Origin: Leptospiria bacterium
Lineage (GTDB): Bacteria; Spirochaetota; Leptospiria; Turneriellales; CBDBES01
Reading direction: 5' to 3'
DNA length: 64,000 nt
NCBI GenBank assembly: GCA_965261485.1
Contig: CBDHCY010000005.1
Span: forward strand, 1,484,901-1,548,900
Position numbers and translations under genes: made by a program. The notes under the pieces were generated by a model that was given only the letters and a program-made list of their open reading frames with translations, was not told the origin of the DNA and searched no databases. Each line of letters opens with the position of its first letter. The first letter of the stretch is position 1. Positions 2,449-64,000 of the stretch are shown piece after piece.

Positions 2449-4475
2449 TTATAGTGGCGGCATTGGCTGATACTCATAAGCACCCATGTCAATGAGAGGG
2501 CCTGCACTAGCAGACTTGCCCTTTACAATACGAGGCTTGCCGGCTAGGTCTAGGGCACCTGCTGGGAATAAAGGCGTCCCAGTAGGCCCATTACTACCCG
2601 CATCAATCGCAGGTGAACCCATCATTAAACTTAAATCATCATCGAGCGTGCCAAAAACATTATCAACACCATCGGCGTCTGCAAACAGAAGGTCATCATC
2701 AGCAGCGTCAATGTTATTACCAGTATTACCAGAAGCACAACTATTAGACCCCGTCCACCAATCGGTACTCACAGTACTATCACTACAATCTTGAATCAGG
2801 CTGTGTGAAATAGTAACTGTATCAGCAGAATCTCGATTACAAAAATTCATATTACCTTGGGGACTGCCTCCAGTACAAGCCGTCGCTGTATTGTCCCACA
2901 TAATGACATTGATCAAAATAAGACCAGAAGCGGTATTTACCATACCGCCACCGCCACCATTACTAGTGGCTGTATTGCCTGAAAAAATAACATTATTCAA
3001 AGTTACATCAGTACCATTATTACGCATACCGCCACTAGAAAAATCAGCCTTATTACCTGAGAAAATAACATTACTCAAAATAAAACGAAGACCAGTAATA
3101 ATAAATAGACCGCCTCCAGCATCATTAGACTTATTACCTGAGAAAATAACATTACTCAATGTTAAATCATCACTAGCACTACTAAACATACCGCCGCCAC
3201 CAGTAGCACTGCCAGCACTCAAACCAGCAGCACGATTACCTGAGAAAATAATATTACTTAATATTAAATTATTACCCTGTAAATTATAAAGACCGCCGCC
3301 ATTCGATCTCACTTGACCAGTACCATTTGATTGACCAGCTGTAATCGTAAACCCGTCTAAAGTTGTATTAGCCGCCCCTGTAACAACCGTATAAACATTG
3401 TTACCCTTAATATCGCTAGTAACTGTGGTGCTACCAGTCATAACTCGATTGGTCGTTTCTGTAACGCCATCAGCATTAACCGTGTCATTATTATCAATGT
3501 CACCGCTGAGAATAGTTTTATTCACCCGCCAGTTACGCTCACTTAATAAAGTATCTGCGACATCAAAACCACCATAGACCTTGACATTTGATTTCAATTG
3601 AAAAGTAGCATCTCTTCTATCAGAAGTTGTAGACGTAGGCTTATAAATACCTTTAGCCACCACAATCTTATTAGTGCCTGCAGAAGATGTTAACGCTAAG
3701 TTTAGAGAGCTATAAGCATTCGACCAACTCGTGCCATCATCCGTGCCATTCGCAGCAGCATTCACAAAAATAATTTTATCAGAGCTTTTCGTTGCTTCGA
3801 TCTCAACACCCGCGGCGTAATTATGGCTTGCATCATAAGCGAAGATTTTATAATAGTAGGCGGTGTTTACCGTTGCGGCACTAACGCCGAAATCAGAAGA
3901 ATTAGCACTCTGCACCACCTCTGAGCCACCAATATCACCACCAACCGTATATTCTTCACCAGCACTAGGCACGTCTACTATTGAGCTTGTATTTCTTAAG
4001 ATTAAAACACCAGAGAAATCAGCATCTGTCGGGTTTGCCCAAACAATCACGTTTAAGTCTCCAAAAGTAGCACCACTCACCACGGCTGGTGCCTCTGTAT
4101 CTGTTGGATCAGAATTTGTTCCACCGGGATTTGTTCCGCCGGGATTCTTGCCACCGGGATCTGTTGGGTCAGGATTTTTCCCGCCGGGCTCTATTGGCAC
4201 AGCCGGATCTTTAGCATCGTCGGAGCAAGAGACGTTAAAGGCAAAAAAAATAAGGATTAATAATAAACCTTGAGTAACCTTGAGTAACCTTGAGTAACCT
4301 TGAGTAACCTTGAGTAACCTTGAGTAACCTTGAGTAACCTTGAGTAACCTTGAGTAACCTTGAGTAACCTTGAGTAACCTTGAGTAACCTTGAGTAACCT
4401 TGAGTAACCTTGAGTAACCTTGAGTAACCTTGAGTAACCTTTGTGAGTTGATTTAAGTGCTTTTAATAGTTTCAT
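2449..4475 (-). CDS. P1: phase-variable Pmp-like / choice-of-anchor-Q-like beta-helix surface lipoprotein; leader and body currently out of frame (OFF)
   Basis: Body ORF 2449-4200 (583 aa) plus leader ORF 4257-4475 (MKLLKALKSTHK followed by repeat-encoded GYSRLLKVTQ...). Body features: lipobox segment GLLLILIFFAFNVSC|SDDAKDP readable upstream in the body frame; Pro/Gly linker PGGKNPDPTDPGG; Fn3-like block (ADFSGVLILRNT...YYYKIFAYDASHNY); repeated LSNVIFSGNxA...GGG[LM] beta-helix units; C-terminal DADGVDN..SPAIDAGS..DLAGKPRIV..IDMGAYE. The frame breaks only at the 17-unit decamer tract. Confidence 0.8.
4268..4441 (-). repeat. decamer tract, 17 perfect copies of CCTTGAGTAA (coding strand TTACTCAAGG)
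   Basis: Counted directly: units run from 4268 to 4437, then a partial CCTT. The tract lies between the ATG (4475) and the lipobox codons. Confidence 0.95.
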
Positions 4476-4479
4476 GTCT

Positions 4480-4508
4480 TCTTATCGTACACAAGGATAA
4501 TCTGTCAA
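4480..4508 (-). promoter_or_regulatory. candidate sigma70-type promoter of P1 (TTGACA-17 nt-ATAAGA, then 4 nt to the ATG)
   Basis: Minus strand reads TTGACAgattatccttgtgtacgATAAGAagacATG. The -35 is at 4508-4503 and the -10 at 4485-4480. The same architecture is conserved upstream of all five decamer-bearing paralogs. No Shine-Dalgarno sequence is visible. Confidence 0.35.
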
Positions 4509-4563
4509 TAAAAAAATGTTTTTTATAATTTATGAATACTTTGGAATTTAAAGACGTCTAATG

Positions 4564-5522
4564 AAATTCAAAGTTAAATTGAGGTTCGGCCTACTTTTTT
4601 ATTGTGATAGTGGCGGCATTGGCTGAAACCCATAAACACCCATCAAATTCAAATTCAAATTGACAATTGAAAATAGAAAATGGAAAATTGAGGTTCAGCC
4701 TACTTTTTTATTGTGATAGTGGCGGCATTGGCTGAAACCCATAAACACCCATCAAATTCAAATTCAAATTGACAATTGAAAATAGAAAATTGAGGTTCAG
4801 CCTACCTTTTTATTGTTATAGTGGCGGCATTGGCTGATACTCATAAGCACCCATCAAATAGAAAATGGAAAATTGAGGTTCAGCCTACTTTTTTATTGTG
4901 ATAGTGGCGGCATTGGCTGAGCTTCATAAGCACCCACCAAATTGACAATTGAAAATAGAAAATGGAAAATTGAGGTTCAGCCTACTTTTTTATTGTGATA
5001 GTGGCGGCATTGGCTGAGCTTCATAAGCACCCACCAAATTGACAATTGAAAATTGAGGTTCAGCCTACTTTTTTATTGTGATAGTGGCGGCATTGGCTGA
5101 GCTTCATAAGCACCCACCAAATAGAAAATGGAAAATTGAGGTTCGGCCTACCTTTTATTGTGATAGTGGCGGCATTGGCTGAGCTTCATAAGCACCCATC
5201 AAATTCAAATTCAAATTCAAATTCAAATTGAAAGTTGAAAATGGAAAATTAAAAGTTCAGCCTACTTTTTTATTGTTATAGTGGCGGCATTGCCTGAAAC
5301 CCATAAACACCCACCAAATTGAAAATTGAAAATTGAGGTTCGGCCTACCTTTTATTGTGATAGTGGCGGCATTGGCTGAGCTTCATAAGCACCCACCAAA
5401 TTGAAAATGGAAAATTGAGGTTCGGCCTACTTTTTATTGTGATAGTGGCGGCATTGCCTGAAACCCATAAACACCCACCAAATTGACAATTGAAAATTGA
5501 GGTTCAGCCTACTTTTTTATTG
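4564..5522 (-). repeat. 3'-tail cassette array A2 (10 extra units) between the P2 stop and the P1 promoter
   Basis: TAGTGGCGGCATTG starts at 4608, 4717, 4819, 4902, 4999, 5082, 5164, 5279, 5361 and 5443, and at the true gene end 5526. Unit lengths are 109, 102, 83, 97, 83, 82, 115, 82, 82 and 83 bp. Confidence 0.9.
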
Positions 5523-7446
5523 TTATAGTGGCGGCATTGGCTGAAACTCGTAAGCACCCATGTCAATGAGAGGGCCTGAACTAGCAGACTTGCCCTTTAC
5601 AATACGAGCCTTGCCGGCTAGGTCTAGGGCACCTGCTGGGAATAAAGGCGTCCCACTAGACCCATTACTACCCGCATCAATCGCAGGTGAAGTCGCCGTT
5701 AAACGTAAATCATCATCGAGCGTGCCAGCAACATTATCAACACCATCGGCGTCTGCAAACAGAGGGTCAGCGTCAATATTATTACCAGTATTACCAGAAG
5801 CACAACTATTAGCATGCCCTGATGCCCACCAATTGGTATCCGTGCTACAACCTTGAATCAGGCTGTGTGAAATAGTAACTATTCCAGAAGAACTGCCGTT
5901 GCAAAAATTAATATTACCTTTTGCTGTCCCTACAGGACAAGCTAGGGACATATTATCTGAAAAAATAACATTACTCAGTTTTAAACCAGTACCACTATTG
6001 AACAGACCGCCACCAACAGAATCAGACTTATTGCCTGAAAAAATAACGTTACTCAAAGTTGCATTAGTACTAGAATTAAAGAAACCGCCGCCAACAGTAA
6101 CAGCCCAATTGCCTGAGAAAATAACATTACTCAGTTTTAAACCAGTACCACCATTGAACAGACCGCCACCACCAAAACCGCCAGAACTATGATTACTGGC
6201 TGTATTGCCTGAGAAGATAACATTACTCAAAGTTAAATCCCCAGCAGCAGTATACATACCGCCGCCAGAATCGGCACTATTGCCTGAGAAGATAATATTA
6301 CTCAAAGTTAAATTATCACCACTACTATTATTATATATACCGCCACCAGAACTTCTACCACCACTAGAACCATTTGATAGACCAGCTGTAATCGTAAAGC
6401 CCTCTAAAGTTGTACCAGCCGCCCCTGTAACAACCGTATAAACATTGTTACCCTTAATATCGCTAGTAACTGTGGTGCTACCAGTCATAACTCGATTGGT
6501 CGTTTCTGTAACGCCATCAGCATTAACGATGTCATTATTATCAATGTCACCGCTGAGAATAGTTTTATTCACCAGCCAGTTACGCTCACTTAACGAGGCA
6601 TCTGCGACATCAAAACCACCATAGACCTTGACATTTGATTTCAATTGAAAAGTAGCACTTCTATCAGAAGTTGTAGACGTAGGCTTATAAACACCTTTAG
6701 CCACCACAATCTTATTAGTGACTGCAGAAGATGTTAACGCTGAGTTTAGAGAGCTATAAGCATTCGACCAACTCGTGCCATCACCCGTGCCACTCGCAGC
6801 AGCATTCACAAAAATAGTCTTATCAGAGCTTCTCGTTGCAGATATCTCAACACCCGCGGCGTAATTATGGCTTGCATCATAAGCGAAGATTTTATAATAG
6901 TAGGCGGTGTTTACCGTTGCGGCACTAACGCCGAAATCAGAAGAATTTGCACTCTGCACCACCTCTGAGCTACCAATATCACCACCAACCGTATATTCTT
7001 CACCAGCACTAGGCACGTCTACTATTGAGCTTGTATTTCTTAAGATTAAAACACCAGAGAAATCAGCATCTGTCGGGTTTGCCCAAACAATCACGTTTAA
7101 GTCTCCAAAAGTAGCACCACTCACCACGGCTGGTGCCTCTGTATCTGTTGAGACAGGAGTCGTTGGCATATTCGGATTTGTTCCGCCGGGATCTGTTGGG
7201 TCAGGGTTCTTTCCGCCGGGCTCTATTGGCACAGCCGGATCTTTAGCATCGTCAGAGCAAGAGACGTTAAAGGCAAAAAAAATAAGGATTAATAATAAAC
7301 CTTGAGTAACCTTGAGTAACCTTGAGTAACCTTGAGTAACCTTGAGTAACCTTGAGTAACCTTGAGTAACCTTGAGTAACCTTGAGTAACCTTGAGTAAC
7401 CTTGAGTAACCTTTTGAGTTGATTTAAGTGCTTTTAATAGTTTCAT
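5523..7446 (-). CDS. P2: phase-variable beta-helix surface lipoprotein paralog, currently OFF
   Basis: Body ORF 5523-7232 (569 aa) has the same architecture as P1. The ATG at 7446-7444 (MKLLKALKSTQK) is separated from the lipobox by an 11-unit decamer tract and is out of frame with the body. Confidence 0.8.
7300..7413 (-). repeat. decamer tract, 11 perfect copies of CCTTGAGTAA
   Basis: Counted directly: units run from 7300 to 7409, followed by CCTTTTGAG. Confidence 0.95.
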
Positions 7447-7450
7447 GTCT

Positions 7451-7479
7451 TCTTATCGTACACAAGGATAATCTGTCAA
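7451..7479 (-). promoter_or_regulatory. candidate promoter of P2 (TTGACA-17-ATAAGA)
   Basis: Identical sequence and spacing to the P1 promoter. The -10 is at 7456-7451 and the -35 at 7479-7474. Confidence 0.35.
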
Positions 7480-7534
7480 TAAAAAAATGTTTTTTATAAT
7501 TTATGAATACCTTGGAATCTAAAGACGTCTAATG

Positions 7535-8469
7535 AAATTCAAAGTTAAATTGAGGTTCAGCCTACTTTTTTATTGTGATAGTGGCGGCATTGCCTGAAAC
7601 CCATAAACACCCATCAAATTCAAATTCAAATTGACAATTAAAAATGGAAAATTAAAAGTTCAGCCTACTTTTTTATTGTTATAGTGGCGGCATTGCCTGA
7701 AACCCATAAACACCCATCAAATTCAAATTCAAATTGACAATTGAAAATAGAAAATTGAGGTTCAGCCTACCTTTTTATTATGATAGTGGCGGCATTGCCT
7801 GAAACCCATAAACACCCATCAAATTCAAATTCAAATTGACAATTGAAAATAGAAAATTGAGGTTCAGCCTACCTTTTTATTATGATAGTGGCGGCATTGG
7901 CTGAGCTTCATAAGCACCCATCAAATTGAAAGTTGAAATTGACAATTGAAAGTGGAAAATTAAAAATTCAGCCTACCTTTTTATTGTTATAGTGGCGGCA
8001 TTGCCTGAAACCCATAAACACCCATCAAATTCAAATTCAAATTCAAATTCAAATTGAAAGTTGAAAATGGAAAATTAAAAGTTCAGCCTACTTTTTTATT
8101 GTGATAGTGGCGGCATTGCCTGAAACCCATAAACACCCATCAAATTCAAATTAAAATTGACAATTGAAAGTGGAAAATTGAGGTTCAGCCTACCTTTTTA
8201 TTGTGATAGTGGCGGCATTGGCTGAGCTTCATAAGCACCTATCAAATTGAAAGTTGAAAGTGGAAAATTGAGGTTCAGCCTACTTTTTTATTGTTATAGT
8301 GGCGGCATTGGCTGAGCTTCATAAACACCCATCAAATTCAAATTCAAATTCAAATTGAAAATGGAAAATTGAGGTTCAGCCTACTTTTTATTGTTATAGT
8401 GGCGGCATTGGCTGAGCTTCATAAGCACCCACCAAATTGACAATTGAGGTTCAGCCTACCTTTTTATTG
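7535..8469 (-). repeat. 3'-tail cassette array A3 (9 extra units) between the P3 stop and the P2 promoter
   Basis: Nine copies of ATAGTGGCGGCATTG[GC]CTGA... precede the true P3 end at 8470. There are two tail alleles (GAGCTTCATAAGCACCC and GAAACCCATAAACACCC) and one hybrid (GAGCTTCATAAACACCC, about 8310). Confidence 0.9.
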
Positions 8470-10471
8470 TTATAGTGGCGGCATTGGCTGAAACTCGTAA
8501 GCACCCATGTCAATGAGAGGGCCTGCACTAGCAGACTTGCCCTTTACAATACGAGGCTTGCCGGCTAGGTCTAGGGCACCTGCTGGGAATAAAGGCGTCC
8601 CACTAGACCCATTACTACCCGCATCAATCGCAGGTGAACCCATCATTAAACTTAAATCATCATCGAGCGTGCCAAAAACATTATCAACACCATCAGCGTC
8701 TGCAAACAGAGGGTCAGCGTCAATGTTATTACCAGTATTACCAGAAGCACAACTATTAGCATGCGTTGATGCCCACCAATTGGTATCCGTGCTACAACCT
8801 TGAATCAGGCTGTGTGAAATAGTAACTGTTCCAGTAGAACTGCTGTTGCAAAAATTCATATTACCTTTTGTTGTCCCTACAGGACAATCTGAGGACATAT
8901 TATCTGAAAAAATAACATTACTCAGTTTTAAACCAGCACCACCATTAAACAGACCGCCACCAGCAGAATCAGACTTATTGCCTAAAAAAGTAACGTTACT
9001 CAAAGTTACATCCTCACCACCATTACGCATACCCCCACCAACAATCTTAGACTTATTGCCTGAGAAAATAACATTACTCAAAATTAAATCCTCACCACCA
9101 TTATTAGAGAACCCGCCGCCGCCCAAAAGGCCAGAACCATGATTACTGGCTGTATTGCCTGAAAAAATAACATTACTCAAAGTCATATTCATACCACCAC
9201 TATTATACATACCGCCGCCAGAATCGGCTAGATTGCCTGAGAAGATAATATTACTCAAAGTTACATTAGCACTACTACCACCATCATTATACAGACCGCC
9301 GCCAGCTGCAGCACTACTACTAGAACCATTTGATAGACCAGCTGTAATCGTAAAGCCCTCTAAAGTTGTATTAGACGCCCCTGTAACAACCGTATAAACA
9401 TTGTTACCCTTAATATCGCTAGTAACTGTGGTGCTACCAGTCATAACTCGATTGGTCGTTTCTGTAACGCCATCAGCATTAACCGTGTCATTATTATCAA
9501 TGTCACCGCTGAGAATAGTTTTATTCACCAGCCAGTTACGCTCACTTAATAAAGTATCTGCGACATCAAAACCACCATAGACCTTGACATTTGATTTCAA
9601 TTGAAAAGTAGCATTTCTCCCAGGAGTTGAAGACGTAGGCGTAGGCTTATAAATACCTTTAGCCACCACAATCTTATTAGTACCTGCAGAAGATGTTAAC
9701 GCTAAGTTTAGAGAGCTATAAGCATTCGACCAACTCGTGCCATCACCTGTACCACTCGCAGCAGCATTCACAAAAATAGTCTTATCAGAACTTTCTCTCG
9801 TTGCTTCGATCTCAACACCCGCGGCATAATTATGGCTTGCATCATAAGCGAAGATTTTATAATAGTAGGCGGTGCCTGCCGTTGTGGCACTAACGCCGAA
9901 ATCAGAAGAATTAGCACTCTGCACCACCTCTGAGCTACCAATATCACCACCAACCGTATATTCTACACCAGCACTAGGCACGTCTGCTATTGAGACTGTG
10001 TTTCTTAAGATTAAAACCCCAGAGAAATCAGCATCTGTCGGGTTTGCCCAAACAATCACGTTTAAGTCTCCAAAAGTAGCACCACTCACCCCAGCTGGTG
10101 CCTCTGTATCTGTTGGATCAGGAATCAACCCGCCGGGATTTTTCCCACTGGGATCTGTTGGGTCAGGGTTCTTTCCGCCGGGCTCTATTGGCACAGCCGG
10201 ATCTTTAGCATCGTCAGAGCAAGAGACGTTAAAGGCAAAAAAAATAAGGATTAATAATAAACCTTGAGTAACCTTGAGTAACCTTGAGTAACCTTGAGTA
10301 ACCTTGAGTAACCTTGAGTAACCTTGAGTAACCTTGAGTAACCTTGAGTAACCTTGAGTAACCTTGAGTAACCTTGAGTAACCTTGAGTAACCTTGAGTA
10401 ACCTTGAGTAACCTTTGAGTAACCTTTGAGTAACCTTTGTGAGTTGATTTAAGTGCTTTTAATAGTTTCAT
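8470..10471 (-). CDS. P3: phase-variable beta-helix surface lipoprotein paralog, currently OFF
   Basis: Body ORF 8470-10194 (574 aa) plus leader ORF 10229-10471 (MKLLKALKSTHKGYSKVTQRLLKV...). The leader frame ends in ...FIINPYFFCL*, which is the lipobox region read in the wrong frame. Confidence 0.8.
10262..10436 (-). repeat. decamer tract, 15 perfect copies plus two 11-bp variants (CCTTTGAGTAA)
   Basis: Counted directly: perfect units run from 10262 to 10411, with variant units at 10412-10433. Confidence 0.95.
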
Positions 10472-10475
10472 GTCT

Positions 10476-10504
10476 TCTTATCGTACACAAGGATAATCTG
10501 TCAA
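10476..10504 (-). promoter_or_regulatory. candidate promoter of P3 (TTGACA-17-ATAAGA)
   Basis: Same sequence and spacing as P1 and P2. The -10 is at 10481-10476 and the -35 at 10504-10499. Confidence 0.35.
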
Positions 10505-10756
10505 TAAAAAAATGTTTTTTATAATTTATGAATAAATGAAATGAGTAAAAAAATCAAATATAATAAAATTATATTTGATAAATTCCATGCATAAAATAAA
10601 ATGACTCGCATTATATATACTCATCTAAAATTAATCGTAAGAAAAGAGTATTTATAAAAGGAGTTAATAAAAGCGATAAAATTATCGCTTCATTAAAACT
10701 AAATTGACATAGTATTGTGATCATATTAGTTTTAATGAAGAAATAAAAGTAAATAG

Positions 10757-12787
10757 ATGCCCACTTTAAAAAAAACTAAAGAATCGTTACTCCCATGGAA
10801 AAAAGAATTTTTTAAAAATATTGGTGTTTTTGAATCATTGGGGTTGCCAAAAGAAAAAGCTCAAGAGCTTCTAAATGGTTTTTTACAACTAATCAATAAA
10901 AGAGGAATACCTAAAGTTTTAGACGTTCTTCATGATGTTTCTAAATTATCAAAATTAGGAACATATACAGAGCACGAAAAGGAAGTTAGAGGGTTTATGA
11001 GTAAATTTCTTTCGCCTTTTTTATCTAAATTTAAACTCAAAGGAGAAAAGAATCTTGAAATATTAGCACAACTGATTGGAAAATTTCCCATTACGATTGT
11101 AGCGAATCATATTAGTCATTTTGATGCTGGTGTACTATTTATGGTGCTTTATAAAGAAGGAGGTTTAGCCCGTAAATTAGCGGAAAATATGGTATTCATT
11201 GCTGGTAGGCCTGTTTTTCAAACACATTTTACCCGTGCTGCTTTAGGAATGCTTAATAGCCTTTTGGTTTGTTCTCGTAAAGATCTTGTAGATAATATGG
11301 GCGCTGCTGATATCATGACAAAAGTCAATATACATTCTTTTAGACATTCAAATAGACTCCAAAAAGAAGGCAAGATCATTGTCATATTTCCAGAAGGAAC
11401 AAGAAGTAGAACAGGTCAGTTGCTTAAATTTGTAGATACTGTTTATCATTATGTCGCCAATAAAATTGTGATTCCTATCTCTTTATCTGGAACCGATGAT
11501 GTTTTACCTCCAAATTCTTTTATCTTTAATTCAGTAGCTGGCAGTATCACGATCGATAAACCTGTTTTTATATCTAGTTCAAAAAATAAGATCCCTCCTG
11601 AATTACCTGATACAATTCATCAGATTTTCCCTACAGAAGATAAAAATAAAAAAACTTACTGTCTTGATTCTCTTGCAACGCTTATTGGAAAAAACCTAGA
11701 GATTCATCGTCATGGTGCGTATCGAAATTTATACCAAGATGACCTTAATGTAAGTGAAAAAAATGTTCTTATTCGGGTTAATAAAAAATCTAGCCAAAAT
11801 ATTGTAGTAATTGGGCATTCAAATTTTTCTACAGCGATTGCTTCTGTGCTTGCAAATAAAAAAAATGTTAATATTAAAATATTTATTCATGATAAAAAAA
11901 AGATAAATTCTTTTAATGCTGATCAGTATGATCTTGAAAACTATCCTTTTTTTAAATTACCTCCTAATATTAAATTTACTTCTGATATTGAGGCAATCAA
12001 AAAAGGAACAATTTTTATTCAAGCGGTTCAGCCATGGATGTTAGATATTTATTATGACAACTTAGTGCCTATTTTAAAAAATACTGAAGGAGCTATTATC
12101 AATGTTATGAAAGGCTTTACAAAATCTCAGTACGGACTCATTTTGTCTGATCTTGAAAAAATATATGGGTTAAAACGTAATAGATTGGTTGCTTTAGCGG
12201 GTTCTAATTATCCTGATCAAATTATGGAGAGAAAAATTACGGGTTTTGAATTAGCTGCTGGTGAGCCGAAGTTACTAAACGATTTAATTTATCTTTTTAA
12301 TACTGGTTATATCTCCACTCATCGAGCAGCTATTTCCAATGATATCAAAGGAGTTCAAATTGGTGGTTCTCTTCGCACTATTTATGCCATGTTAATTGGA
12401 ATGCTTGATGCTTATTACGAAAAAAGATTAGGCGGAAATAACGACAGCACTTTATTTCATTTATCAAATAAAATGTTTTTAGAGATGGTCACACTTGGAG
12501 TTAAAATGGGAGGTAAACGTGAAACTTTTTACGGGCTATCCGGATTAACCGACTTAATGCTTACTTGCTTTGGTTTTGATACACGAGATCGTCATTATGG
12601 CCATGAGTTTATTTTTGGTAGAGCAAATTCTCTCAAAAAATCTTCGGGAATAAGGAATCTTCAAACTTTAACACGTCTTCTAGAAACTGATATAAAAGAA
12701 TATCCCCTTTTATCGATTATCACTCAAATAATCTTAAATAAAGCAACTCCTGAGAAAGTCTTAAAAAGGATTCTTCTTTCGTACTGA
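10757..12787 (+). CDS. fusion protein: N-terminal lysophospholipid (PlsC-type) acyltransferase and C-terminal glycerol-3-phosphate dehydrogenase (GpsA)-like domain
   Basis: Acyltransferase HX4D motif NHISHFD and FPEGTRS in the N-terminal half. The C-terminal half aligns by eye with GpsA (DIKGVQIGGSLRTIYAM and GLSGLTDLMLTC..DTRDRHYG). Confidence 0.7.
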   Translation: MPTLKKTKESLLPWKKEFFKNIGVFESLGLPKEKAQELLNGFLQLINKRGIPKVLDVLHDVSKLSKLGTYTEHEKEVRGFMSKFLSPFLSKFKLKGEKNLEILAQLIGKFPITIVANHISHFDAGVLFMVLYKEGGLARKLAENMVFIAGRPVFQTHFTRAALGMLNSLLVCSRKDLVDNMGAADIMTKVNIHSFRHSNRLQKEGKIIVIFPEGTRSRTGQLLKFVDTVYHYVANKIVIPISLSGTDDVLPPNSFIFNSVAGSITIDKPVFISSSKNKIPPELPDTIHQIFPTEDKNKKTYCLDSLATLIGKNLEIHRHGAYRNLYQDDLNVSEKNVLIRVNKKSSQNIVVIGHSNFSTAIASVLANKKNVNIKIFIHDKKKINSFNADQYDLENYPFFKLPPNIKFTSDIEAIKKGTIFIQAVQPWMLDIYYDNLVPILKNTEGAIINVMKGFTKSQYGLILSDLEKIYGLKRNRLVALAGSNYPDQIMERKITGFELAAGEPKLLNDLIYLFNTGYISTHRAAISNDIKGVQIGGSLRTIYAMLIGMLDAYYEKRLGGNNDSTLFHLSNKMFLEMVTLGVKMGGKRETFYGLSGLTDLMLTCFGFDTRDRHYGHEFIFGRANSLKKSSGIRNLQTLTRLLETDIKEYPLLSIITQIILNKATPEKVLKRILLSY

Positions 12788-15824: not shown

Positions 15825-15873
15825 ATAAAATACTTGCTTTGGGGTAATTGTTGTCGCTACCTCTACCCAACAA

Positions 15874-16315
15874 GCAAGGCACCACTCGTAACTGGCGGTC
15901 AACCACTCTCGCCCAAGCGAGCAAGGCACCACTCGTAACTGTTGGTCAACCACTCTCGCCCAGCGAGCAAGGCACCACTCGTAACTGGCGGTCAACCACT
16001 CTCGCCCAAGCGAGCAAGGCACCACTCGTAACTGGCGGTCAACCACTCTCGCCCAAGCGAGCAAGGCACCACTCGTAACTGTTGGTCAACCACTCTCGCC
16101 CAGCGAGCAAGGCACCACTCGTAACTGGCGGTCAACCACTCTCGCCCAAGCGAGCAAGGCACCACTCGCAACTGGCGGTCAACCACTCTCGCCCAGCGAG
16201 CAAGGTACCACTCGTAACTGGCGGTCAACCACTCTCGCCCAAGCGAGCAAGGCACCACTCGCAACTGGCGGTCAACCACTCTCGCCCAGCGAGCAAGGCA
16301 CCACTCGTAACTGTT
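15874..16315. repeat. GC-rich 46/47-bp tandem minisatellite (9 full units plus a partial unit)
   Basis: The unit is GCAAGGCACCACTCGTAACTGGCGGTCAACCACTCTCGCCCAAGCGA. Unit starts are at 15874, 15921, 15967, 16014, 16061, 16107, 16154, 16200, 16247 and 16293, giving lengths 47, 46, 47, 47, 46, 47, 46, 47 and 46. The array fills the convergent gap between murA and the 1150-aa surface protein gene. Confidence 0.9.
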
Positions 16316-49982: not shown

Positions 49983-50192
49983 CAAATGGAGGTTCAGCCT
50001 ACCTTTTTATTGTTATAGCGGTGGCATTGCCTGAAACTCATAAACACCCATCAAATTCAAATTGAAAGTTGAAAATGGAAAATTGAGGTTCAGCCTACTT
50101 TTTATTGTTATAGCGGCGGCATTGGCTGAGCTTCATAAGCACCCATCAAATTGAAAGTTGAAAATGGAAAATTGAAGGTTCAGATTACTTTT
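49983..50192 (-). repeat. 3'-tail cassette array A4 (2 units) downstream of P4
   Basis: Units at about 50012 (TATAGCGGTGGCATTGCCTGAAACTCATAAACACCC) and about 50108 (TATAGCGGCGGCATTGGCTGAGCTTCATAAGCACCC). Confidence 0.85.
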
Positions 50193-52122
50193 TTATTGAC
50201 TTTCGTAAGCACCCATATCTATGCTACTGCCTACAATACGAGCCTTGCCTGCTAGGTCGGTGGCACCTGCTGGGAATAAAGGCATCCCAGGAGGCCCATT
50301 ACTACCCGCATCAATCGCAGGTGAAGTCGCCATTAAACGTAAATCGTCATCAAACAGAGGGTCAGCGTCAATATTATTACCACCATCGCCATTATTGCCA
50401 GTGCTATCATCACCGTCATTATCGTCGCCACAACTACTAGTGCCCATTGCCCAAGTGGAACCACTAGCACCACAACCTTGAATCAAGCTGTGTGAAATAT
50501 TAATTATCCTATTATTAGTAGACGATCTGTTACTGCAAATATTCTGATTACCTCGGAAACTCCCTCCAGTACAAGTGCCCGCTGTATTGCCCCACATAAT
50601 GACATTAGTCAAGGTGACGGTATTTTCATTTTGAAAAAAAGCAGCTCCCCCAGCATCAGTAGCCGTATTATTTGAAAAGACAACATTATTTAAAGTGAAA
50701 TTAACAGCCGCCCTATCACTCTGCAGACCGCCACCATTAACATCAGACGTATTATCTGAAAAGACAACATTCTCTAAAATTCCATCATACCCCTCATTAT
50801 ACAGACCGCCGCCGCCCAGCCTAAAGCCGTTTGGGTCAACGCTTGCATTGCCTGAAAAAAAAACATTACTTAAATTAATAGTACTACCAACACTAGAAGA
50901 TAGTAATAGACCACCGCCACCATTAGCCGTATTACCGAAGAAAATAATATTACTCAAAGTTACATTATCATTATTTACATTACGCATACCGCCACCAAAA
51001 GCATTCCTTGGCACATTAATATCAGAACCATTTGATTGACCAGCTGTAATCGTAAAGCCCTCTAAAGTTGTATTAGACGCCCCTATAACAACCGTATAAC
51101 TATTACTACCCACAATGTGACTAGCATTTTCTATAATGCCATCATCATTAGAATCAGTATCGTCACCACCAATGTCACCGCTGAGAATAGTTTTATTCAC
51201 CCGCCAGTTACGCTGACTCAATGAATGCTCTGTACCCACGAAACCACCATAGACCTTGACCTTTGATACCAATTGAAAAGTAGCATTTCTATCAGAAGTT
51301 GTAGACGTAGGCTTATAAACACCTTTAGCCACCACAATCTTATTAGTGGCTACAGAAGATGTTAACGCTGAGTTTAGAGAGCTATAAGCATTCGACCAAC
51401 TCGTGCCATCACCCGTACCACTAGCAGCAGCATTCACAAAAATAATTTTACCTGATCGTCTTGTTGCTTCAATCTCAACACCCGCAGCGTAATTATGGCT
51501 TGCATCATAAGCAAAAATTTTATAATAGTAAGAAGTGCCTACCGTTGCGGTACTAACGCCGAAATCAGAAGAATTTGCACTCTGCACCACCTCTGAGCTA
51601 TCAATATCATCACCAACCGTATATTCTGTACCAGCACTAGGGGCGTCTACTATTGAGACTGTGTTTCTTAAGATTAAAACACCAGAGAAATCAGCATCCG
51701 CTGGGTTCATCCAAGTGATTACATTTAATAAGTCTCCAAAAGCAACGCCACTCACCACAGCTGGTGGCTCTGTATCTGTTGGATCAGGAATCGTTGGCAT
51801 ATTCGGATTTGTTCCGCCGGGATTCTTTCCACCGGGATTTGTTGGGTCAGGATTTTTCCCACTGGGCTCTATTGGCACAGCCGGACCTTTAGCATCGTCA
51901 GAGCAAGAGACGTTAAAGGCAAAAAAAATAAGGATTAATAATAAACCTTGAGTAACCTTGAGTAACCTTGAGTAACCTTGAGTAACCTTGAGTAACCTTG
52001 AGTAACCTTGAGTAACCTTGAGTAACCTTGAGTAACCTTGAGTAACCTTGAGTAACCTTGAGTAACCTTGAGTAACCTTGAGTAACCTTTTGAGTTGATT
52101 TAAGTGCTTTTAATAGTTTCAT
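50193..52122 (-). CDS. P4: phase-variable beta-helix surface lipoprotein paralog, currently OFF
   Basis: Body ORF 50193-51878 (561 aa, ends IDMGAYESQ*) plus leader ORF 51913-52122 (MKLLKALKSTQKVTQGYSRLLKV...FIINPYFFCL*). Confidence 0.8.
51946..52089 (-). repeat. decamer tract, 14 perfect copies of CCTTGAGTAA
   Basis: Counted directly: units run from 51946 to 52085, followed by CCTTTTGAG. Confidence 0.95.
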
Positions 52123-52126
52123 GTCT

Positions 52127-52155
52127 TCTTATCGTACACTAAAACAGTCTGTCAA
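52127..52155 (-). promoter_or_regulatory. candidate promoter of P4 (TTGACA-17-ATAAGA)
   Basis: Minus strand reads TTGACAgactgttttagtgtacgATAAGAagacATG. The -10 is at 52132-52127 and the -35 at 52155-52150. Confidence 0.35.
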
Positions 52156-52212
52156 TAAAAAAATGTTTTTTTGATAATTTCTGAATACTTTGAAATTTAA
52201 AGACATCTAATT

Positions 52213-52422
52213 AAATTCAAATGGAGGTTCAGCCTACTTTTTTATTGTTATAGTGGCGGCATTGGCAGAGCTTCATAAAGCATCCACCAAATTCAAATCG
52301 AAAGTGGAAAATTGAGAGTTCAGCCTACTTTTTTATTGTTATAGCGGTGGCATTGGCTGAGCTTCATAAGCACCCATCAAATTCAAATTGAAAATTGAAA
52401 ATGGAAGGTTCAGATTACTTTT
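52213..52422 (-). repeat. 3'-tail cassette array A5 (2 units) downstream of P5
   Basis: Units at about 52248 and about 52342 (TATAGTGGCGGCATTGGCAGAGCTTCATAAAGCATCC and TATAGCGGTGGCATTGGCTGAGCTTCATAAGCACCC). Confidence 0.85.
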
Positions 52423-54315
52423 TTATTGACTTTCGTAAGCACCCATATCTATGCTATTGCCTACAATACGAGCCTTGCCTGCTAGGTCTAGGGCACCAGT
52501 TGCGAATAAAGGCATTCCAGTAGGCCCATTACTACCCGCATCAATCGCGGGTGAACCCGCCTTTAAACGTAAACCATCATCGGCCGTACCAAAAATATTA
52601 TCAGCACCATTGGGGTCATCAGCGTCTGCAAACAGAGGGTTATTACTATCAATATTATTACCAGTATTACCAGAAGCACAACTATTAGCATGCGTTGATG
52701 CCCACCAATTGGTATCCGTGCTACAACCTTGAATCAGGCTGTGTGAAATAGTAACTGCAACAAGCATACCGCCGCTACAAAAATTAGCATTACCTTTGGC
52801 ACTGTTTCCAGTACAAGCCATCGCCGTATTGCCCCACATAATGACATTAGTCAAAGTAAGATCAGCAGAAGCATTTGACAGACCGCCACCAGTAGTACCA
52901 GACTCATTGCCTGAGAAAATAACATTACTCAAAGTTAAACGAGGACTAGCATTACGCATACCGCCACCAAAAACAGCAGACTTATTGTCTGAGAAAATAA
53001 TATTACTCAAAGTTAAACTGAAATCAGAACTAGACAAACCGCCGCCACCAAAAGAGCTAACACGCTGATTACTGGCTGTATTGCCCGAGAAAATAATATT
53101 ACTCAAAATTAAATTCCTACCAACATTGTACATACCGCCGCCAGAATCGGCTGTATTGCCTGAGAAAATAATATTACTCAAAATTAAATTATCACTAGAA
53201 CTATGCATACCGCCCCCCAGAATAACGACACCAATACCCCTACTGGCATTTGATTGACCAGCTGTAATCGTAAAGCCCTCTAAAGTTGTATCACCCGCCC
53301 CTGTAACAACCGTATAACTATTACTACCATTAATATCGCTAGTAGCTGTGGTGCTACCAGAACTAACTCGATTGGTCGTTTCTGTAACGCCATCAGCATT
53401 AACCGTGTCATTATTATCAATGTCACCGCTGAGAATAGTTTTATTCATCCGCCAGTTACGCTCACTTAATAAAGTATCTGCGACATCAAAACCACCATAG
53501 ACCTTGACCCCTGATATCAATTGAAAAGTAGCACTTCTATCAGAAACTGAAGGTGGAGACACTAAAGGCATCGCAAGTGTAGTAGGCTTATAAACACCTT
53601 TAGCCACCACAATTTTATCACCAGTGGTGGCGACGACTCCTTCAGCAGGAGGTTTTAACACCGACCGTAGATCGCTATAAGCATTCGACCAACTCGTGCC
53701 ATCACCCGTACCACTAGCAGCAGCATTCACAAAAATAGTCTTATCAGAACTTTTTGTTGCTTCGATCTCAACACCCGCGGCGTAATTATGGCTTGCATCA
53801 TATGCGAAGATTTTATAATAGTAAGAAGTGCCCATCGTTGCGGCACTAACGCCGAAATCAGAAGAATTTGCACTCTGCACCACCTCTGAGCTACCAATAT
53901 CACCACCAACCGTATATTCTTTACCAACACTAGGAGCGTCGTCTGTTATTGAGACTGTATTTCTTAAGATTAAAACCCCAGAGAAATCAGCATCTGTCGG
54001 GTTTGCCCAAACAATCACGTTTAAGTCTCCAAAAGTAGCACCACTCACCACAGCTGGTGGCTCTGTATCTGTTGGATCAGGAATCGTTGGCATATTCGGA
54101 TTTGTTCCGCCGGGATTCTTTCCACCGGGATCTGTTGGGTCAGGGTTCTTTCCGCCGGGCTGTGTTGGCACAGCCGGATCTTTAGCATCGTCAGAGCAAG
54201 AGACGTTAAAGGCAAAAAAAATAAGGATTAATAATAAACCTTGAGTAACCTTGAGTAACCTTGAGTAACCTTGAGTAACCTTTTGAGTTGATTTAAGTGC
54301 TTTTAATAGTTTCAT
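52423..54315 (-). CDS. P5: beta-helix surface lipoprotein paralog, intact and in frame (ON)
   Basis: Single 630-aa ORF: MKLLKALKSTQKVTQGYSRLLKVTQG-LLLILIFFAFNVSC|SDDAKDPAVPTQPGGKNPDP..., followed by the Fn3-like block, FSGN/GGG repeats and a C-terminal ...IDMGAYESQ*. The decamer tract has 4 units. Confidence 0.88.
   Translation of the reverse strand: MKLLKALKSTQKVTQGYSRLLKVTQGLLLILIFFAFNVSCSDDAKDPAVPTQPGGKNPDPTDPGGKNPGGTNPNMPTIPDPTDTEPPAVVSGATFGDLNVIVWANPTDADFSGVLILRNTVSITDDAPSVGKEYTVGGDIGSSEVVQSANSSDFGVSAATMGTSYYYKIFAYDASHNYAAGVEIEATKSSDKTIFVNAAASGTGDGTSWSNAYSDLRSVLKPPAEGVVATTGDKIVVAKGVYKPTTLAMPLVSPPSVSDRSATFQLISGVKVYGGFDVADTLLSERNWRMNKTILSGDIDNNDTVNADGVTETTNRVSSGSTTATSDINGSNSYTVVTGAGDTTLEGFTITAGQSNASRGIGVVILGGGMHSSSDNLILSNIIFSGNTADSGGGMYNVGRNLILSNIIFSGNTASNQRVSSFGGGGLSSSDFSLTLSNIIFSDNKSAVFGGGMRNASPRLTLSNVIFSGNESGTTGGGLSNASADLTLTNVIMWGNTAMACTGNSAKGNANFCSGGMLVAVTISHSLIQGCSTDTNWWASTHANSCASGNTGNNIDSNNPLFADADDPNGADNIFGTADDGLRLKAGSPAIDAGSNGPTGMPLFATGALDLAGKARIVGNSIDMGAYESQ
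54239..54282 (-). repeat. decamer tract, 4 perfect copies of CCTTGAGTAA
   Basis: Counted directly: units run from 54239 to 54278, followed by CCTTTTGAG. Confidence 0.95.
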
Positions 54316-54319
54316 GTCT

Positions 54320-54348
54320 TCTTATCGTACACTAAAACAGTCTGTCAA
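54320..54348 (-). promoter_or_regulatory. candidate promoter of P5 (TTGACA-17-ATAAGA)
   Basis: Same sequence as the P4 promoter. The -10 is at 54325-54320 and the -35 at 54348-54343. Confidence 0.35.
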
Positions 54349-54404
54349 TAAAAAAATGTTTTTTTGATAATTTCTGAATACTTTGAAATTTAAAGACATC
54401 TAAT

Positions 54405-54547
54405 TAAATTCAAATGGAGGTTCAGCCTACTTTTTATTGTGATAGTGGCGGCACATTGGCTGAGCTTCATAAAGCATCCACCAAATTCAAATTGAAAGTT
54501 CAAAATGGAAAATTGAAAGTTGAGAGTTCAGAGTTCAGATTACTTTT
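54405..54547 (-). repeat. 3'-tail cassette array A6 (1 unit) downstream of P6
   Basis: One unit at about 54441 (GATAGTGGCGGCACATTGGCTGAGCTTCATAAAGCATCC), followed by hexamer-rich spacer. Confidence 0.8.
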
Positions 54548-56656
54548 TTATTGACTTTCGTAAGCACCCATATCTATGCTACTGCCTACAATACGAGGGT
54601 TGCCGGCTAGGTCTAGGGCACCAGTTACGAATAAAACTTTCGTATTATCACTAGGATCAACATTACTACCCGCATCAATCGCGGGTGAACCCGCCCTTAA
54701 ACGTAAATCGTCATCAAACAGAGGGTCAGCGTCAATGTTATTACCACCATCAGTGCCGCATCTACTGAGATTAGTTGCTGAGCTCCAAATGGAAGAACCA
54801 CTAACACCACAATCTTGAATCAAGCTATGTGAAATAGTAGGCTGTACATTGAAGGTGCAAAAATTAACATTACCCTTAAAATTGTCTCCAGTACAAGCAG
54901 CCCCTGTATTGCCCCACATAATGACATTGGTCAAGATAGCAACAGCACTTCCAGTATTTTTGCGAATTTGACTTCCTCCACCTACATTAGTAGCTGTATT
55001 GTTTGAAAAAACAACATTAGTCAAGGTTAAATTAGCATCAACACTTTGTATACCGCCACCAAAACTGGCCATATTGCCTGAAAAAGCAACATTGGTTAAA
55101 ATAGCACCACCACCACGAATAGTAAGACCACCTCCACCCAAAATAGTAGCTGTATTGTTTGAAAAAACAATATTAGTTAAGGTTAAATTATCACTACCCT
55201 TAGCATAAAAACCGCCACCAACATTGGCTGCATTGCCTGAAAAAGTAATATTAGTTAAAGTTAAATTATGATTATCTATATTATACACGCCACCACCCCT
55301 ATTAATATAATTACCGGTACCTGCAGGAGCATTTGATTGACCAGCTGTAATCGTAAAACCGTCTAGAATGGCATCGCTCGCCCCTGTAACAACTGTATAA
55401 CTATTATTAGCGATTACAGTCATCATACCACCAGCATCCACCATTTCGGTACCCTTAATGTCATCAGCATTTTCTATAATGCCATCACGATTAGAATCAG
55501 TATCGTCACCACCAATGTCACCGCTGAGAATAGTTTTATTCACCCGCCAGTTACGCTCACTTAACGAGGCATCTGCGACATCAAAACCACCATAGACCTT
55601 GACATTTGATATCAATTGAAAGGTAGCATTTCTCCCAAGAGTTGAAAGTGTAGACCTAGGCTTATAAATACCTTTAGCCACCACAATCTGAACTGGTAGA
55701 GTCTCAGTCGCATCATCAGCTATTTTAGATTCTAACGCTGAGTTTAGGGAGCTGTAAGCATTCGACCAACTCGTGCCATCACCCGTGCCACTCGCAGCAA
55801 CATTCACAAAAATAATTTTATCAGAGATTTTCGTTGCAGAGATCTCAAAACCTGTGGCATAGTTACGGTTTGTATCATAAGTGAAGATTTTATAATAATA
55901 CTTTTTATAACGGTAAGGAATATTTTCTCCATCCTGTTCCCTTATATCTGTGAGGTCAAAGTCAAGAGATTTTGCATCGTGCACCACCTCTGAGGCACCA
56001 ATTGAAACACCAACCGTATATTCTTTACCAGCACTAGGGGCGTCTACTATTGAGCTTGTATTTCTTAAAATTAAAACTTTAGAGAAATCAGCATCTGTTG
56101 GGTTTAACCAAGTGATTTTGTTCGTGAAATCACTAAAAGTAACATCGCTCACCTCAGCTGGTGGCACTGTATCTGTCGGATTGGTTTTTGTCGAACCAGG
56201 TGTTTTGTAGTCAGCCAGTGCTGGTATATATTTATTAACCTTAGTCTGAACACCGTTGTTGTAGTAGAGATAAGTGTCACAGACAAAGATTTTATAAAAA
56301 TAAACGACATCCTCTACAACTTCTGTGTCTCTAAAAGTTGGTGCGGCTGCGTTATAGGCTACCCGTGAGGCTCCCATTGCGGTGAAGACAGGATAATCTC
56401 GCCAAGGTCTAGGAAAACCTTGGATAGCACTTGTATTCTTTAAGATTAGAACCTTATTGTAGATGTTACGGCCTCTACTCGCAGGATTCTTCCATGCTAG
56501 GGTTATCCCGCTTGAATTACGATTAACGGTAAGATCTGTGACTTCTGGTAGAGGGTCATCCAACCCATTCAAAAAATATGCACGACCAATTTTAGTGCAA
56601 TGCAGGAAAATCAGTAGGAAAAAAAAACTTATAAAAAATAGAAATCTTGAGTTCAT
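54548..56656 (-). CDS. P6: beta-helix surface protein paralog, long form with a duplicated Fn3-like domain and no decamer switch
   Basis: 702-aa intact ORF. It has a different signal peptide (MNSRFLFFISFFFLLIFLHC), two Fn3-like modules (…VYFYKIFVCDTYLYY and …YYYKIFTYDTNRNY), TLTN[IV]xFSxNxA..GGG repeats, and ends IDMGAYESQ*. Confidence 0.85.
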   Translation of the reverse strand: MNSRFLFFISFFFLLIFLHCTKIGRAYFLNGLDDPLPEVTDLTVNRNSSGITLAWKNPASRGRNIYNKVLILKNTSAIQGFPRPWRDYPVFTAMGASRVAYNAAAPTFRDTEVVEDVVYFYKIFVCDTYLYYNNGVQTKVNKYIPALADYKTPGSTKTNPTDTVPPAEVSDVTFSDFTNKITWLNPTDADFSKVLILRNTSSIVDAPSAGKEYTVGVSIGASEVVHDAKSLDFDLTDIREQDGENIPYRYKKYYYKIFTYDTNRNYATGFEISATKISDKIIFVNVAASGTGDGTSWSNAYSSLNSALESKIADDATETLPVQIVVAKGIYKPRSTLSTLGRNATFQLISNVKVYGGFDVADASLSERNWRVNKTILSGDIGGDDTDSNRDGIIENADDIKGTEMVDAGGMMTVIANNSYTVVTGASDAILDGFTITAGQSNAPAGTGNYINRGGGVYNIDNHNLTLTNITFSGNAANVGGGFYAKGSDNLTLTNIVFSNNTATILGGGGLTIRGGGAILTNVAFSGNMASFGGGIQSVDANLTLTNVVFSNNTATNVGGGSQIRKNTGSAVAILTNVIMWGNTGAACTGDNFKGNVNFCTFNVQPTISHSLIQDCGVSGSSIWSSATNLSRCGTDGGNNIDADPLFDDDLRLRAGSPAIDAGSNVDPSDNTKVLFVTGALDLAGNPRIVGSSIDMGAYESQ

Positions 56657-62084: not shown

Positions 62085-64000
62085 TTATTGGCCTTCATAA
62101 GCACCCATATCTATGCGATCGTTTACAATACGAGGGTTGCCGGCTAGGTCGGTGGTTATCTCAGCGGGTAGCCCACCATTGTCGGCCGTACTACCCACAT
62201 CAATCGCAGGTGAACCCGTATTTAAACGTAAATTGTCATCAAGCGTACCAACAACATTATCAGCACCATCGGCGTCTACAAACATTGGATAATTAGCATA
62301 ACCAGCAGCTGTCGGGTCACCATCAATATTATTACCACCATCGCCATTATTGCCAGTGCTATCATCACCATCATTATCGTCGCCACAACTGCTAACACCC
62401 GTTGCCCAAGTGGAACCACTAACACCACAACCTTGAATCAAGCTGTGTGAAATATTAATTGTCCTGGTATCACCAGACAATTTGCTACTGCAAATATTCT
62501 GATTACCTCGGGAATTCGCTCCAGTACAAGTGCCCGCTGTATTGCCCCACATAATGACATTGATCAAGATAATACTTCCAGCTCCATAAATACTACTTCC
62601 TCCACCTCCATCAGCAGTAGCTGTATTGTTTGAAAAAACAACATTAGTCAAGGTTAAATTAGCATGAGTACTCCGTGTACCGCCACCAAAAGGGGCCATA
62701 TTGCCTGAAAAAGCAACATTGGTTAAAATAGCACTACTACGAAAATTAGTAAGACCACCACCACCTAGATTGGAAGCAGTGTTCCCAAAAAAAAGAATAT
62801 TAGTTAATATTAAATTATTACTATTTCTACTATACACACCGCCGCCACCACCGGCTGCATTGCCTGAAAAAGTAATATTAGTTAAGGTTAAATTATGATT
62901 ATCTATATTATACACGCCACCACCCCTATTAGTATGGTTAAAGGTACCAGTAGGACCATTTGATTGACCAGCTGTAATCGTAAAACCATCTAAAATGGCA
63001 TCACTCGCCCCTGTAACAACTGTATAACTATTATTAGCGATTACAGTCATCATACCACCAGCATCCGCCATTTCGGTACCCTTAATGTCATCAGCATTTT
63101 CTGTAACGCCGGCAGCATTAACAGTGTCGTCACCACCAAGATCACCGCTTAAAATGGGTTTGTTCACCCGCCAGTTACGCTCACTTAATGAGGTCTCTGT
63201 ACCACTAAAACCACCATAGACCCTGACATGTGATATCAATTGAAAAGTAGCATCTCGATCAGAAACTAAAGACGTAGGCTTGTAAACACCTGCAGCCACC
63301 ACAATTTGAACTGGTAGAGCCGAGGTCGCGGCAGTGGCTGTAGAAGATGTTAACGCTGAGCTTAAATCGCTAAAAGCATTCGACCAACTCGTGCCATCAC
63401 TCGAACCACTCGCACCACCCGCAGCATTAACAAAAATAGTCTTATTAGTATTTTTCGTTGCAGAGATTTCAACACCCGCGGCATAATTACGGCTTGCATC
63501 ATAAGCGAAGATTTTATAAAAATAAAGAGTGCCCGCCGTTGCCGCTCTAACGCTGAAATCAGGAGAATTGGCATTGTACACCACCCGTGAAGTACCAATT
63601 GAAGCATCAACTATATATTCTTCACCAGCACTAGGGCCATCTATTATTGAGATTGTATCTCTTAAGATTAAAACCTTAGAGAAATCAGCATCCGCTGGGT
63701 TTATCCAAGTAATTACATTTAATAAGTCTCTAAAAGTAACATCGCTCACCTCAGCTGGTGATTGTGTATCAGCTGGTGGTGGTATATATTTATTAACCTT
63801 AGTCTGAACGCCGAAATTGTAATAAAGATAAGTGTCAGAGACAAAGACTTTATAAAAATAAACGACATCCTCTACAACTTCTGTGTCTCTAAAAGTTGGT
63901 GCGGCTGCGTTATAGACTACCCGTGAGACTCCCATTGTGGTGGAGACAGGATAATCTCGCCAATGTTTAGGAAAATCTTGGATAGCACTTGTATTCTTTA
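62085..64000 (-). CDS. P7: beta-helix surface protein paralog (long form like P6); the N-terminus lies beyond the window end
   Basis: ORF track 62085-63935. The frame stays open to 64000: hand translation gives ...KNTSAIQDFPKHWRDYPVSTTMGVS, parallel to P6 KNTSAIQGFPRPWRDYPVFTAMGAS. Ends IDMGAYEGQ*. Confidence 0.85.
   Translation of the reverse strand, partial: KNTSAIQDFPKHWRDYPVSTTMGVSRVVYNAAAPTFRDTEVVEDVVYFYKVFVSDTYLYYNFGVQTKVNKYIPPPADTQSPAEVSDVTFRDLLNVITWINPADADFSKVLILRDTISIIDGPSAGEEYIVDASIGTSRVVYNANSPDFSVRAATAGTLYFYKIFAYDASRNYAAGVEISATKNTNKTIFVNAAGGASGSSDGTSWSNAFSDLSSALTSSTATAATSALPVQIVVAAGVYKPTSLVSDRDATFQLISHVRVYGGFSGTETSLSERNWRVNKPILSGDLGGDDTVNAAGVTENADDIKGTEMADAGGMMTVIANNSYTVVTGASDAILDGFTITAGQSNGPTGTFNHTNRGGGVYNIDNHNLTLTNITFSGNAAGGGGGVYSRNSNNLILTNILFFGNTASNLGGGGLTNFRSSAILTNVAFSGNMAPFGGGTRSTHANLTLTNVVFSNNTATADGGGGSSIYGAGSIILINVIMWGNTAGTCTGANSRGNQNICSSKLSGDTRTINISHSLIQGCGVSGSTWATGVSSCGDDNDGDDSTGNNGDGGNNIDGDPTAAGYANYPMFVDADGADNVVGTLDDNLRLNTGSPAIDVGSTADNGGLPAEITTDLAGNPRIVNDRIDMGAYEGQ

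Follow-up and report, generated by a model that had tools for sequence, protein, structure and literature searches.

A decanucleotide tract in the leader of a putative surface-lipoprotein gene as a probable phase-variation switch in a Leptospirales-related spirochaete

The decanucleotide tract at the 5' end of the P3 gene is probably a simple-sequence-repeat contingency switch, by which slipped-strand changes of the reading frame would phase-vary a family of putative surface lipoproteins; we put the probability of this reading at roughly 80%. P3 is one of five tract-bearing paralogs in the 64,000-nt stretch of DNA analysed here (the window). As in contingency loci, a perfect repeat whose unit is not a multiple of three lies inside the open reading frame, a change in unit number toggles the predicted product, and tract length is polymorphic while the flanks are conserved. 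The tracts of the window hold 17, 11, 15 (+2), 14 and 4 units, those of conspecific contigs 10, 8 and 1.

The genome is a single contig of 2,133,161 bp with ~30% G+C. Its ProRS is 52-56% identical to its closest matches, Spirochaetia, Leptospiraceae and Turneriella MAG proteins, and the host is thus an uncultured Leptospirales-related spirochaete with a small genome.

Anatomy and reading frame of the P3 tract

The tract follows the start codon and leader and precedes the hydrophobic core and Cys of a signal peptide (LLLILIFFAFNVSC), behind which comes the 596-codon body (Table 1). The start codon at 10471 is confirmed by the repeat-free paralogs, which also open with MKLLKxLK. Tandem Repeats Finder delimits the array at 10260-10437 (period 10, 17.6 copies, 98% matches). 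Copies of the unit dimer number 56 in the window and zero in 100 dinucleotide-preserving shuffles, so chance is excluded. The 15 perfect units would be the hypermutable core of the switch.

Table 1. Features of P3 and of the other tract-bearing paralogs in the window
Feature	Position	Strand	Description
P1 tract	4266..4435	-	STHK leader, 17 perfect units; OFF (needs +1 or -2)
P2 tract	7298..7407	-	STQK leader, 11 perfect units; OFF (needs -1 or +2)
P3 perfect 10-bp units	10260..10409	-	15 units ACTCAAGGTT (+2 variant), STHK leader; OFF (needs -1 or +2)
P3 11-bp variant units	10410..10431	-	ACTCAAAGGTT twice, one additional A each, at the ATG-proximal tract edge
P3 leader with start codon	10432..10471	-	40 nt, ATGAAACTATTAAAAGCACTTAAATCAACTCACAAAGGTT; opens MKLLKALKSTHK… / MKLLKALKSTHKG..
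P3 leader 3' end		-	Degenerate 13-nt unit ACTCACAAAGGTT, 'STHK' allele
P3 start codon	10471-10469	-	ATG
P3 current OFF-state ORF	10229..10471	-	80 codons, C-terminus ..RFIINPYFFCL, then TAA 10229-10231
P3 body frame	8470..10260	-	596 codons, intact, no usable start; begins TTA TTA TTA ATC…
P3 putative ribosome-binding site	10479-10473	-	Purine-rich
P3 TTGACA	10504-10499	-	In upstream block
P3 upstream block	10472..10530	-	AAAAAACATTTTTTTATTGACAGA..GTGTACGATAAGAAGAC; conserved across all paralogs and strains by alignment
P4 tract	51944..52083	-	STQK leader, 14 perfect units; OFF (needs -1 or +2)
P5 tract	54237..54276	-	STQK leader, 4 perfect units; ON

The original prediction described 15 perfect units and, at the ATG-proximal end, two 11-bp variants, and this is what the sequence contains. 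The location that it gave for the variants, 10412-10433 (CCTTTGAGTAA on the plus strand), is exact and corresponds to 10431-10410 when the register is moved by 2 nt. The STHK leader was likewise correctly described as exceeding the STQK leader (ACTCAAAAGGTT) by 1 nt, and is common only to P1 and P3. The sum of 38+22+150 = 210 nt (10471-10262) is correct; translation of the body begins one base later, which brings the distance from ATG to body to 211 nt.

Incomplete homogenisation of the tracts had also been proposed. This holds for the ATG-proximal edge, where P3 carries the 11-bp units that are absent from the four other tracts of the window and from two conspecific contigs (L081 and L093), and does not hold for the interior: all 61 interior 10-bp units of the window are identical to each other, as are the 20 in the relatives. 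In the assembly the two edge units are real and confined to P3; they change the ON register of this copy, but are a minor detail of it.

With 211 nt between ATG and body (211 mod 3 = 1), P3 is out of frame, and its OFF product is limited to 80 residues. The 10-bp unit length is not divisible by three, and deleting one perfect unit in silico yields a continuous ORF of 663 aa (14 units), as the original prediction expected of a one-unit loss. Long ORFs also result from 17 perfect units, a gain of two (673 aa), and from 11 units (653 aa), while tracts of 12, 13, 15, 16, 18 or 19 units give products of 66-90 aa (80 for 15 units, 76 for 16). Since 11 mod 3 = 2, the frame is restored as well when both 11-bp units are removed or when one is added. 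The different ON register predicted for P3 was confirmed: the number n of perfect units must be 0 mod 3 in P1 and 1 mod 3 in P2, P4 and P5, and the two 11-bp units give P3 a private ON register of n = 2 mod 3.

None of the three sense frames is interrupted within the P3 tract, and each wrong frame meets a stop 3 or 10 codons past it. The body frame contains no ATG, GTG or TTG from the beginning of the tract to the Cys codon, so the OFF state is expected to be tight. Initiation within the gene was considered for the OFF state and rejected, the first body-frame start candidate being a GTG at 10194, past the signal peptide. In the ON products, the repeat adds VTQGYSRLLK decapeptides to the positively charged n-region, whose length in ON alleles is predicted to range from ~16 to ~70 residues depending on the tract.

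Single-stranded DNA folding of the P3 leader and tract found no self-structure (MFE 0, z = +3.9). Hairpin-driven instability of the tract was rejected on this ground, and slippage would thus be a simple out-of-register realignment.

Upstream of the gene, ~60 nt 5' of the ATG are almost invariant in an alignment of all paralogs. A sigma-70/terminator consensus scan called no canonical promoter pair for P3, where the conserved TTGACA is only 13 nt away from the best -10-like hexamer. Divergently transcribed from P3 is a 676-aa ORF (10757-12787), an apparent fusion of a PlsC-like acyltransferase N-terminal part and GpsA (NAD(P)H glycerol-3-phosphate dehydrogenase).

The encoded protein and its paralogs

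The P3 body comprises the signal-peptide h-region and Cys, a Pro-rich linker, an FN3-like region, beta-helix repeats and a C-terminal choice-of-anchor Q domain. The latter is recognized by NCBIfam NF041518 in P3 (29.9 bits) and P5 (38.2 bits), above the curated cut-off of 25 bits. The bodies contain GGGx…(L/I)SN(V/I)IFSGN repeats akin to those of the Chlamydia Pmp proteins. The gathering threshold of Pfam PF02415 (Chlam_PMP, 20.6 bits) is passed by P4 (26.2 bits), with P3 (15.4) and P5 (12.3) remaining below it. By these profile scores, the family carries Pmp-like repeats and is not assigned to Pmp.

The AlphaFold model has a mean pLDDT of 65, with a confident beta-helix core at approximately residues 330-530. 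Foldseek against the PDB returned only non-significant matches to right-handed beta-helices (polygalacturonase, tailspikes, pectate lyase). A PDB sequence search gave no match, and the protein had no hit to an Opa or beta-barrel family.

The N-terminus is kept in all paralogs and strains, with a charged n-region, a LLLILIFFAF core and ..NVSC-SDD. In the Cys motif F-N-V-S-C, the Asn at -3 lies outside the strict PROSITE-type lipobox; spirochaetal lipoboxes are looser than the strict pattern. The N-terminus looks like a spirochaetal lipoprotein signal peptide, and because the Asn breaks the strict lipobox, we only infer its lipidation. The P3 product is thus a putative lipoprotein, presumably surface-exposed, of a beta-helix ('choice-of-anchor Q', Pmp-like) family.

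The ACTCAAGGTT unit is found at the identical position in all five paralogs. P5 is the sole copy in frame (630-aa ORF, 52423-54315). One ON copy out of five does not differ from the one-third expected under random phases, which fits a switch and also neutral drift.

P1 and P3 (4266-4475 and 10260-10471) have the STHK leader and an equal total of 17 units; P2, located between them, differs in both respects, with STQK and 11 units. The pattern points to a recent duplication or to gene conversion, between non-adjacent copies, of the 5' end. The 11-bp edge units would then have been formed in P3 by the insertion of a single A, followed by duplication.

The paralogs have a mosaic structure: identity reaches 95-99% in some 150-nt blocks, which different pairs have in common, and drops to 51-69% in the central beta-helix region. 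Such a mosaic with a hypervariable beta-helix centre would be expected for a variable surface antigen or adhesin. The genome encodes at least 12 family members, of which P0007, P0010, P0013 and P0014, located outside the window, may have a tract. Two further members in the window (54548-56656, P0016-like; 62085-64000, P0015-like) have a repeat-free leader (MNSRFLFFISFFFLLIFLHC) and an additional N-terminal domain; the repeat switch therefore does not cover all paralogs.

Other repeats accompany the family. Directly after the Cys, in-frame 15/30-bp repeats (4099-4197, 51805-51866, 54105-54159) encode the Pro-rich linker (PGGKNPDPTDP…); their copy number varies among paralogs, a second length polymorphism that keeps the frame. 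On the 3' side of each paralog (2210-2484, 4576-5560, 7547-8507, 49984-50198, 52219-52428), tandem arrays of 82-108-bp units are found. Each unit is a copy of the gene's last ~40 nt (..GAYE[YF]QPMPPL-stop) and the subsequent CAATAAAAAGTAGGCTGAACCTCAATTT. Repeated recombination or duplication at the 3' ends of the genes may have left these arrays behind; alternatively, they may represent a terminator module in several copies.

Conspecific strains and rival explanations

Five contigs of one ENA assembly (ERZ26693861) carry the family. Four of them (L081, L082, L093 and L094) match the window at 95-98.7% identity in their housekeeping flanks and therefore represent conspecific strains; their family genes are only ~73-87% identical. 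Synteny identifies the P3 ortholog in L093: it occupies the interval from plsC/gpsA to priA that houses P3-P2-P1 in the window. It has the STQK leader and 8 perfect units, lacks 11-bp units and is out of frame. The tract at the RNB-sucA locus numbers 10 units in L081, where the gene (P0004, 675 aa) is in frame, and is reduced to a single unit in L082. ON alleles are thus known with 1, 4 and 10 units.

Comparison of the STHK and STQK leaders in relatives had been proposed and was carried out. All tract-bearing leaders of the relatives (three conspecific contigs) are STQK, which is likely the ancestral leader. Because of this, and because the P3 ortholog in L093 has no 11-bp units, the STHK allele (a C insertion) and the two AAA units are derived and private to the window genome. 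Repeat-free paralogs have a single proto-unit at the corresponding place in the signal peptide, either TCA ACT CAA GGT TAC… (STQGYLLI) or the form encoding STQGLLLI, with decayed versions STSGY and STWGY. The tract therefore arose when native leader sequence was amplified where the n-region of the signal peptide meets the h-region.

The number of paralogs varies between strains as well. From priA to plsC/gpsA (window 2449-10471), the window has three tandem paralogs (P1-P3) and L093 one; from the RNB gene to sucA (window 50193-56656), it has three (P0016-like, P5 and P4), and L081 and L082 have one each. Both loci are recombination hot spots.

The four out-of-frame copies, P3 included, might instead be dead duplicates, decaying pseudogenes in which the repeat is an incidental minisatellite without regulatory role. 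Four of the five copies in the window are indeed out of frame, and annotation pipelines call these as 5'-truncated proteins (P0002, P0003, P0005 and P0008). However, all five bodies are uninterrupted over 583-605 codons and tract phase is the only lesion in the OFF copies. Decay also accounts poorly for the single promoter, RBS and leader block that is conserved in all copies and strains, for the ON alleles with 4 and 10 units, and for the perfect homogeneity of the tracts, which would not be preserved under decay. Pseudogene decay is thus a very unlikely explanation. An artefact must likewise be regarded as improbable: the 11-bp units, and possibly the exact unit counts, would be assembly or consensus errors, and the true P3 would have STHK and 17 perfect units like P1. 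The equal unit totals of P1 (17) and P3 (2+15 = 17), their common leader and the fact that this is a single-contig assembly of an uncultured organism speak in its favour. Yet a context-dependent homopolymer error would be expected in all units, whereas only the first two are affected and 61 others are perfect. Even without both A's, P3 would still be OFF (209 nt, 209 mod 3 = 2), which leaves the switch reading unchanged.

The phase of the DNA would not be decisive if the OFF copies were rescued at the level of RNA or the ribosome, with the repeat causing transcriptional slippage or a programmed frameshift. In favour of this, the mRNA of the repeat is predicted to have no structure and each 11-bp unit has a short A run. 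Against this stand the lack of a slippery heptamer and of a stimulatory structure, an Rfam search without any match across the whole window (and hence without a frameshift element), and the termination of both wrong frames straight after the tract. The A runs in the units are moreover only 2-3 nt long, far shorter than the lengths that cause transcriptional slippage. We consider such a rescue extremely improbable.

Proposed mechanism, known systems and distribution

As a contingency switch, the P3 tract would work as follows. Slipped-strand mispairing during replication would add or remove 10-bp units, at a high frequency as suggested by the comparative data, although the differences in tract length among paralogs and strains could also have accumulated slowly. 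Each gain or loss would shift the frame and turn translation of the putative surface lipoprotein ON or OFF. Tract-bearing paralogs would flip independently, and a population would then present varying combinations of beta-helix proteins. The additional n-region would presumably be removed with the signal peptide, in which case tract length sets only ON or OFF. Against the switch stand the missing canonical promoter call and the long ON tracts, whose precursors would have n-regions of up to ~67 residues and may no longer function as lipoprotein signal peptides. An unlikely, more speculative proposal is that the tract acts as a graded 'volume control' of export, its length tuning Sec targeting or the rate of lipoprotein maturation. 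The 10-bp (10 mod 3 = 1) and 11-bp (11 mod 3 = 2) units of P3 would constitute two independent slippage moduli, and identical tracts and leaders could in addition serve as recombination anchors by which mosaic paralogs are reshuffled between loci and strains.

The contingency switch has parallels in several known systems. The Chlamydia pmp genes encode beta-helix surface proteins with GGxx/FxxN-type repeats, turned ON and OFF by poly-G frameshifts. The present family resembles them in its beta-helix proteins, its proposed frameshift-based switching and the P4 score against Chlam_PMP. It differs in that its members are non-autotransporters with a lipoprotein-type leader, a choice-of-anchor Q C-terminus and a decanucleotide rather than a homopolymer. 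Among spirochaetes, the tpr genes of Treponema pallidum and other poly-G tracts vary the expression of surface-protein genes with repeat length. Those homopolymers mostly act on transcription, in promoter regions, whereas here a coding decanucleotide array would act on the frame.

The contingency loci of Haemophilus influenzae, Neisseria and Campylobacter have mono- to tetranucleotide tracts near the 5' ends of ORFs. Slipped-strand mispairing in these loci results in translational ON/OFF switching (reviewed in PMC11868660). The polymorphism of tract length among strains is common to both, but in those loci unrelated genes carry the tracts, while here all belong to a single paralogous family. 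A 10-nt unit is at the very upper limit of SSR/phasome screens (PMC5231331). In the Neisseria opa genes, CTCTT repeats lie in the coding sequence of the leader peptide, and the gain or loss of units sets the frame (PMC3745409). Both opa and the present family have perfect non-3n repeats within the signal-peptide coding region of a multigene family, each copy with its own number and phase. The unit is 10 nt long here and 5 in opa, and it encodes a decapeptide of the charged n-region (VTQGYSRLLK) instead of part of the hydrophobic core. The product, a putative beta-helix lipoprotein of a Leptospirales-like spirochaete, is unrelated to the Opa beta-barrel. The P3 switch would thus work like opa, but it is no member of the opa group, given its ACTCAAGGTT unit and non-Opa product.

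A scan of GTDB species-representative contigs with the P5 protein detected only distant homologs (at most 42% identity), in MAGs of Chloroflexota, Planctomycetota and Bacteroidota; neither the source species nor a near relative is among these representatives. At the 80 distant loci (531 kb), no comparable tract was present, and the switch is therefore lineage-specific. Scanning JGI metagenomes for the unit dimer gave ten unrelated G+C-rich loci with 2-4 copies and no relatives. A protein search with an artificial long ON leader yielded no candidates, and when the 80-aa OFF peptide was searched for exhaustively, the matches were all repetitive ORFs that have similar decapeptides but no relationship to the family. 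In the literature, we found no direct precedent for decanucleotide phase variation and no report of SSR phase variation in Leptospira or relatives. The mechanism itself is textbook; the present case departs from known ones in the 10-nt unit, the position in the n-region of a lipoprotein-type leader, the confinement of all tracts to one paralogous beta-helix family, and the new host lineage.

If the tracts switch, a spirochaete with a small genome possesses a set of independently phase-variable surface proteins from one paralogous family, which would point to fluctuating selection at the cell surface by a host, phage or predator. SSR phase variation would be extended to the order of Leptospira, and a 10-nt unit, at the cut-off of common phasome screens (PMC5231331), would suffice for switching. 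The 5'-truncated gene calls imply that such families are systematically mis-annotated in metagenome-assembled genomes.

A further array was observed at 15866-16313, in the gap where murA and a 1150-aa ORF with GLUG motifs converge. A G+C-rich 46/47-bp unit (CCCAAGCGAGCAAGGCACCACTCGTAACTGGCGGTCAACCACTCTCG) is repeated there 9.6 times in an otherwise ~30% G+C genome. The array is interrupted by stop codons in every frame, matches nothing in Rfam, and numbers only ~2.7 copies in the conspecific L094 (2250-2376).
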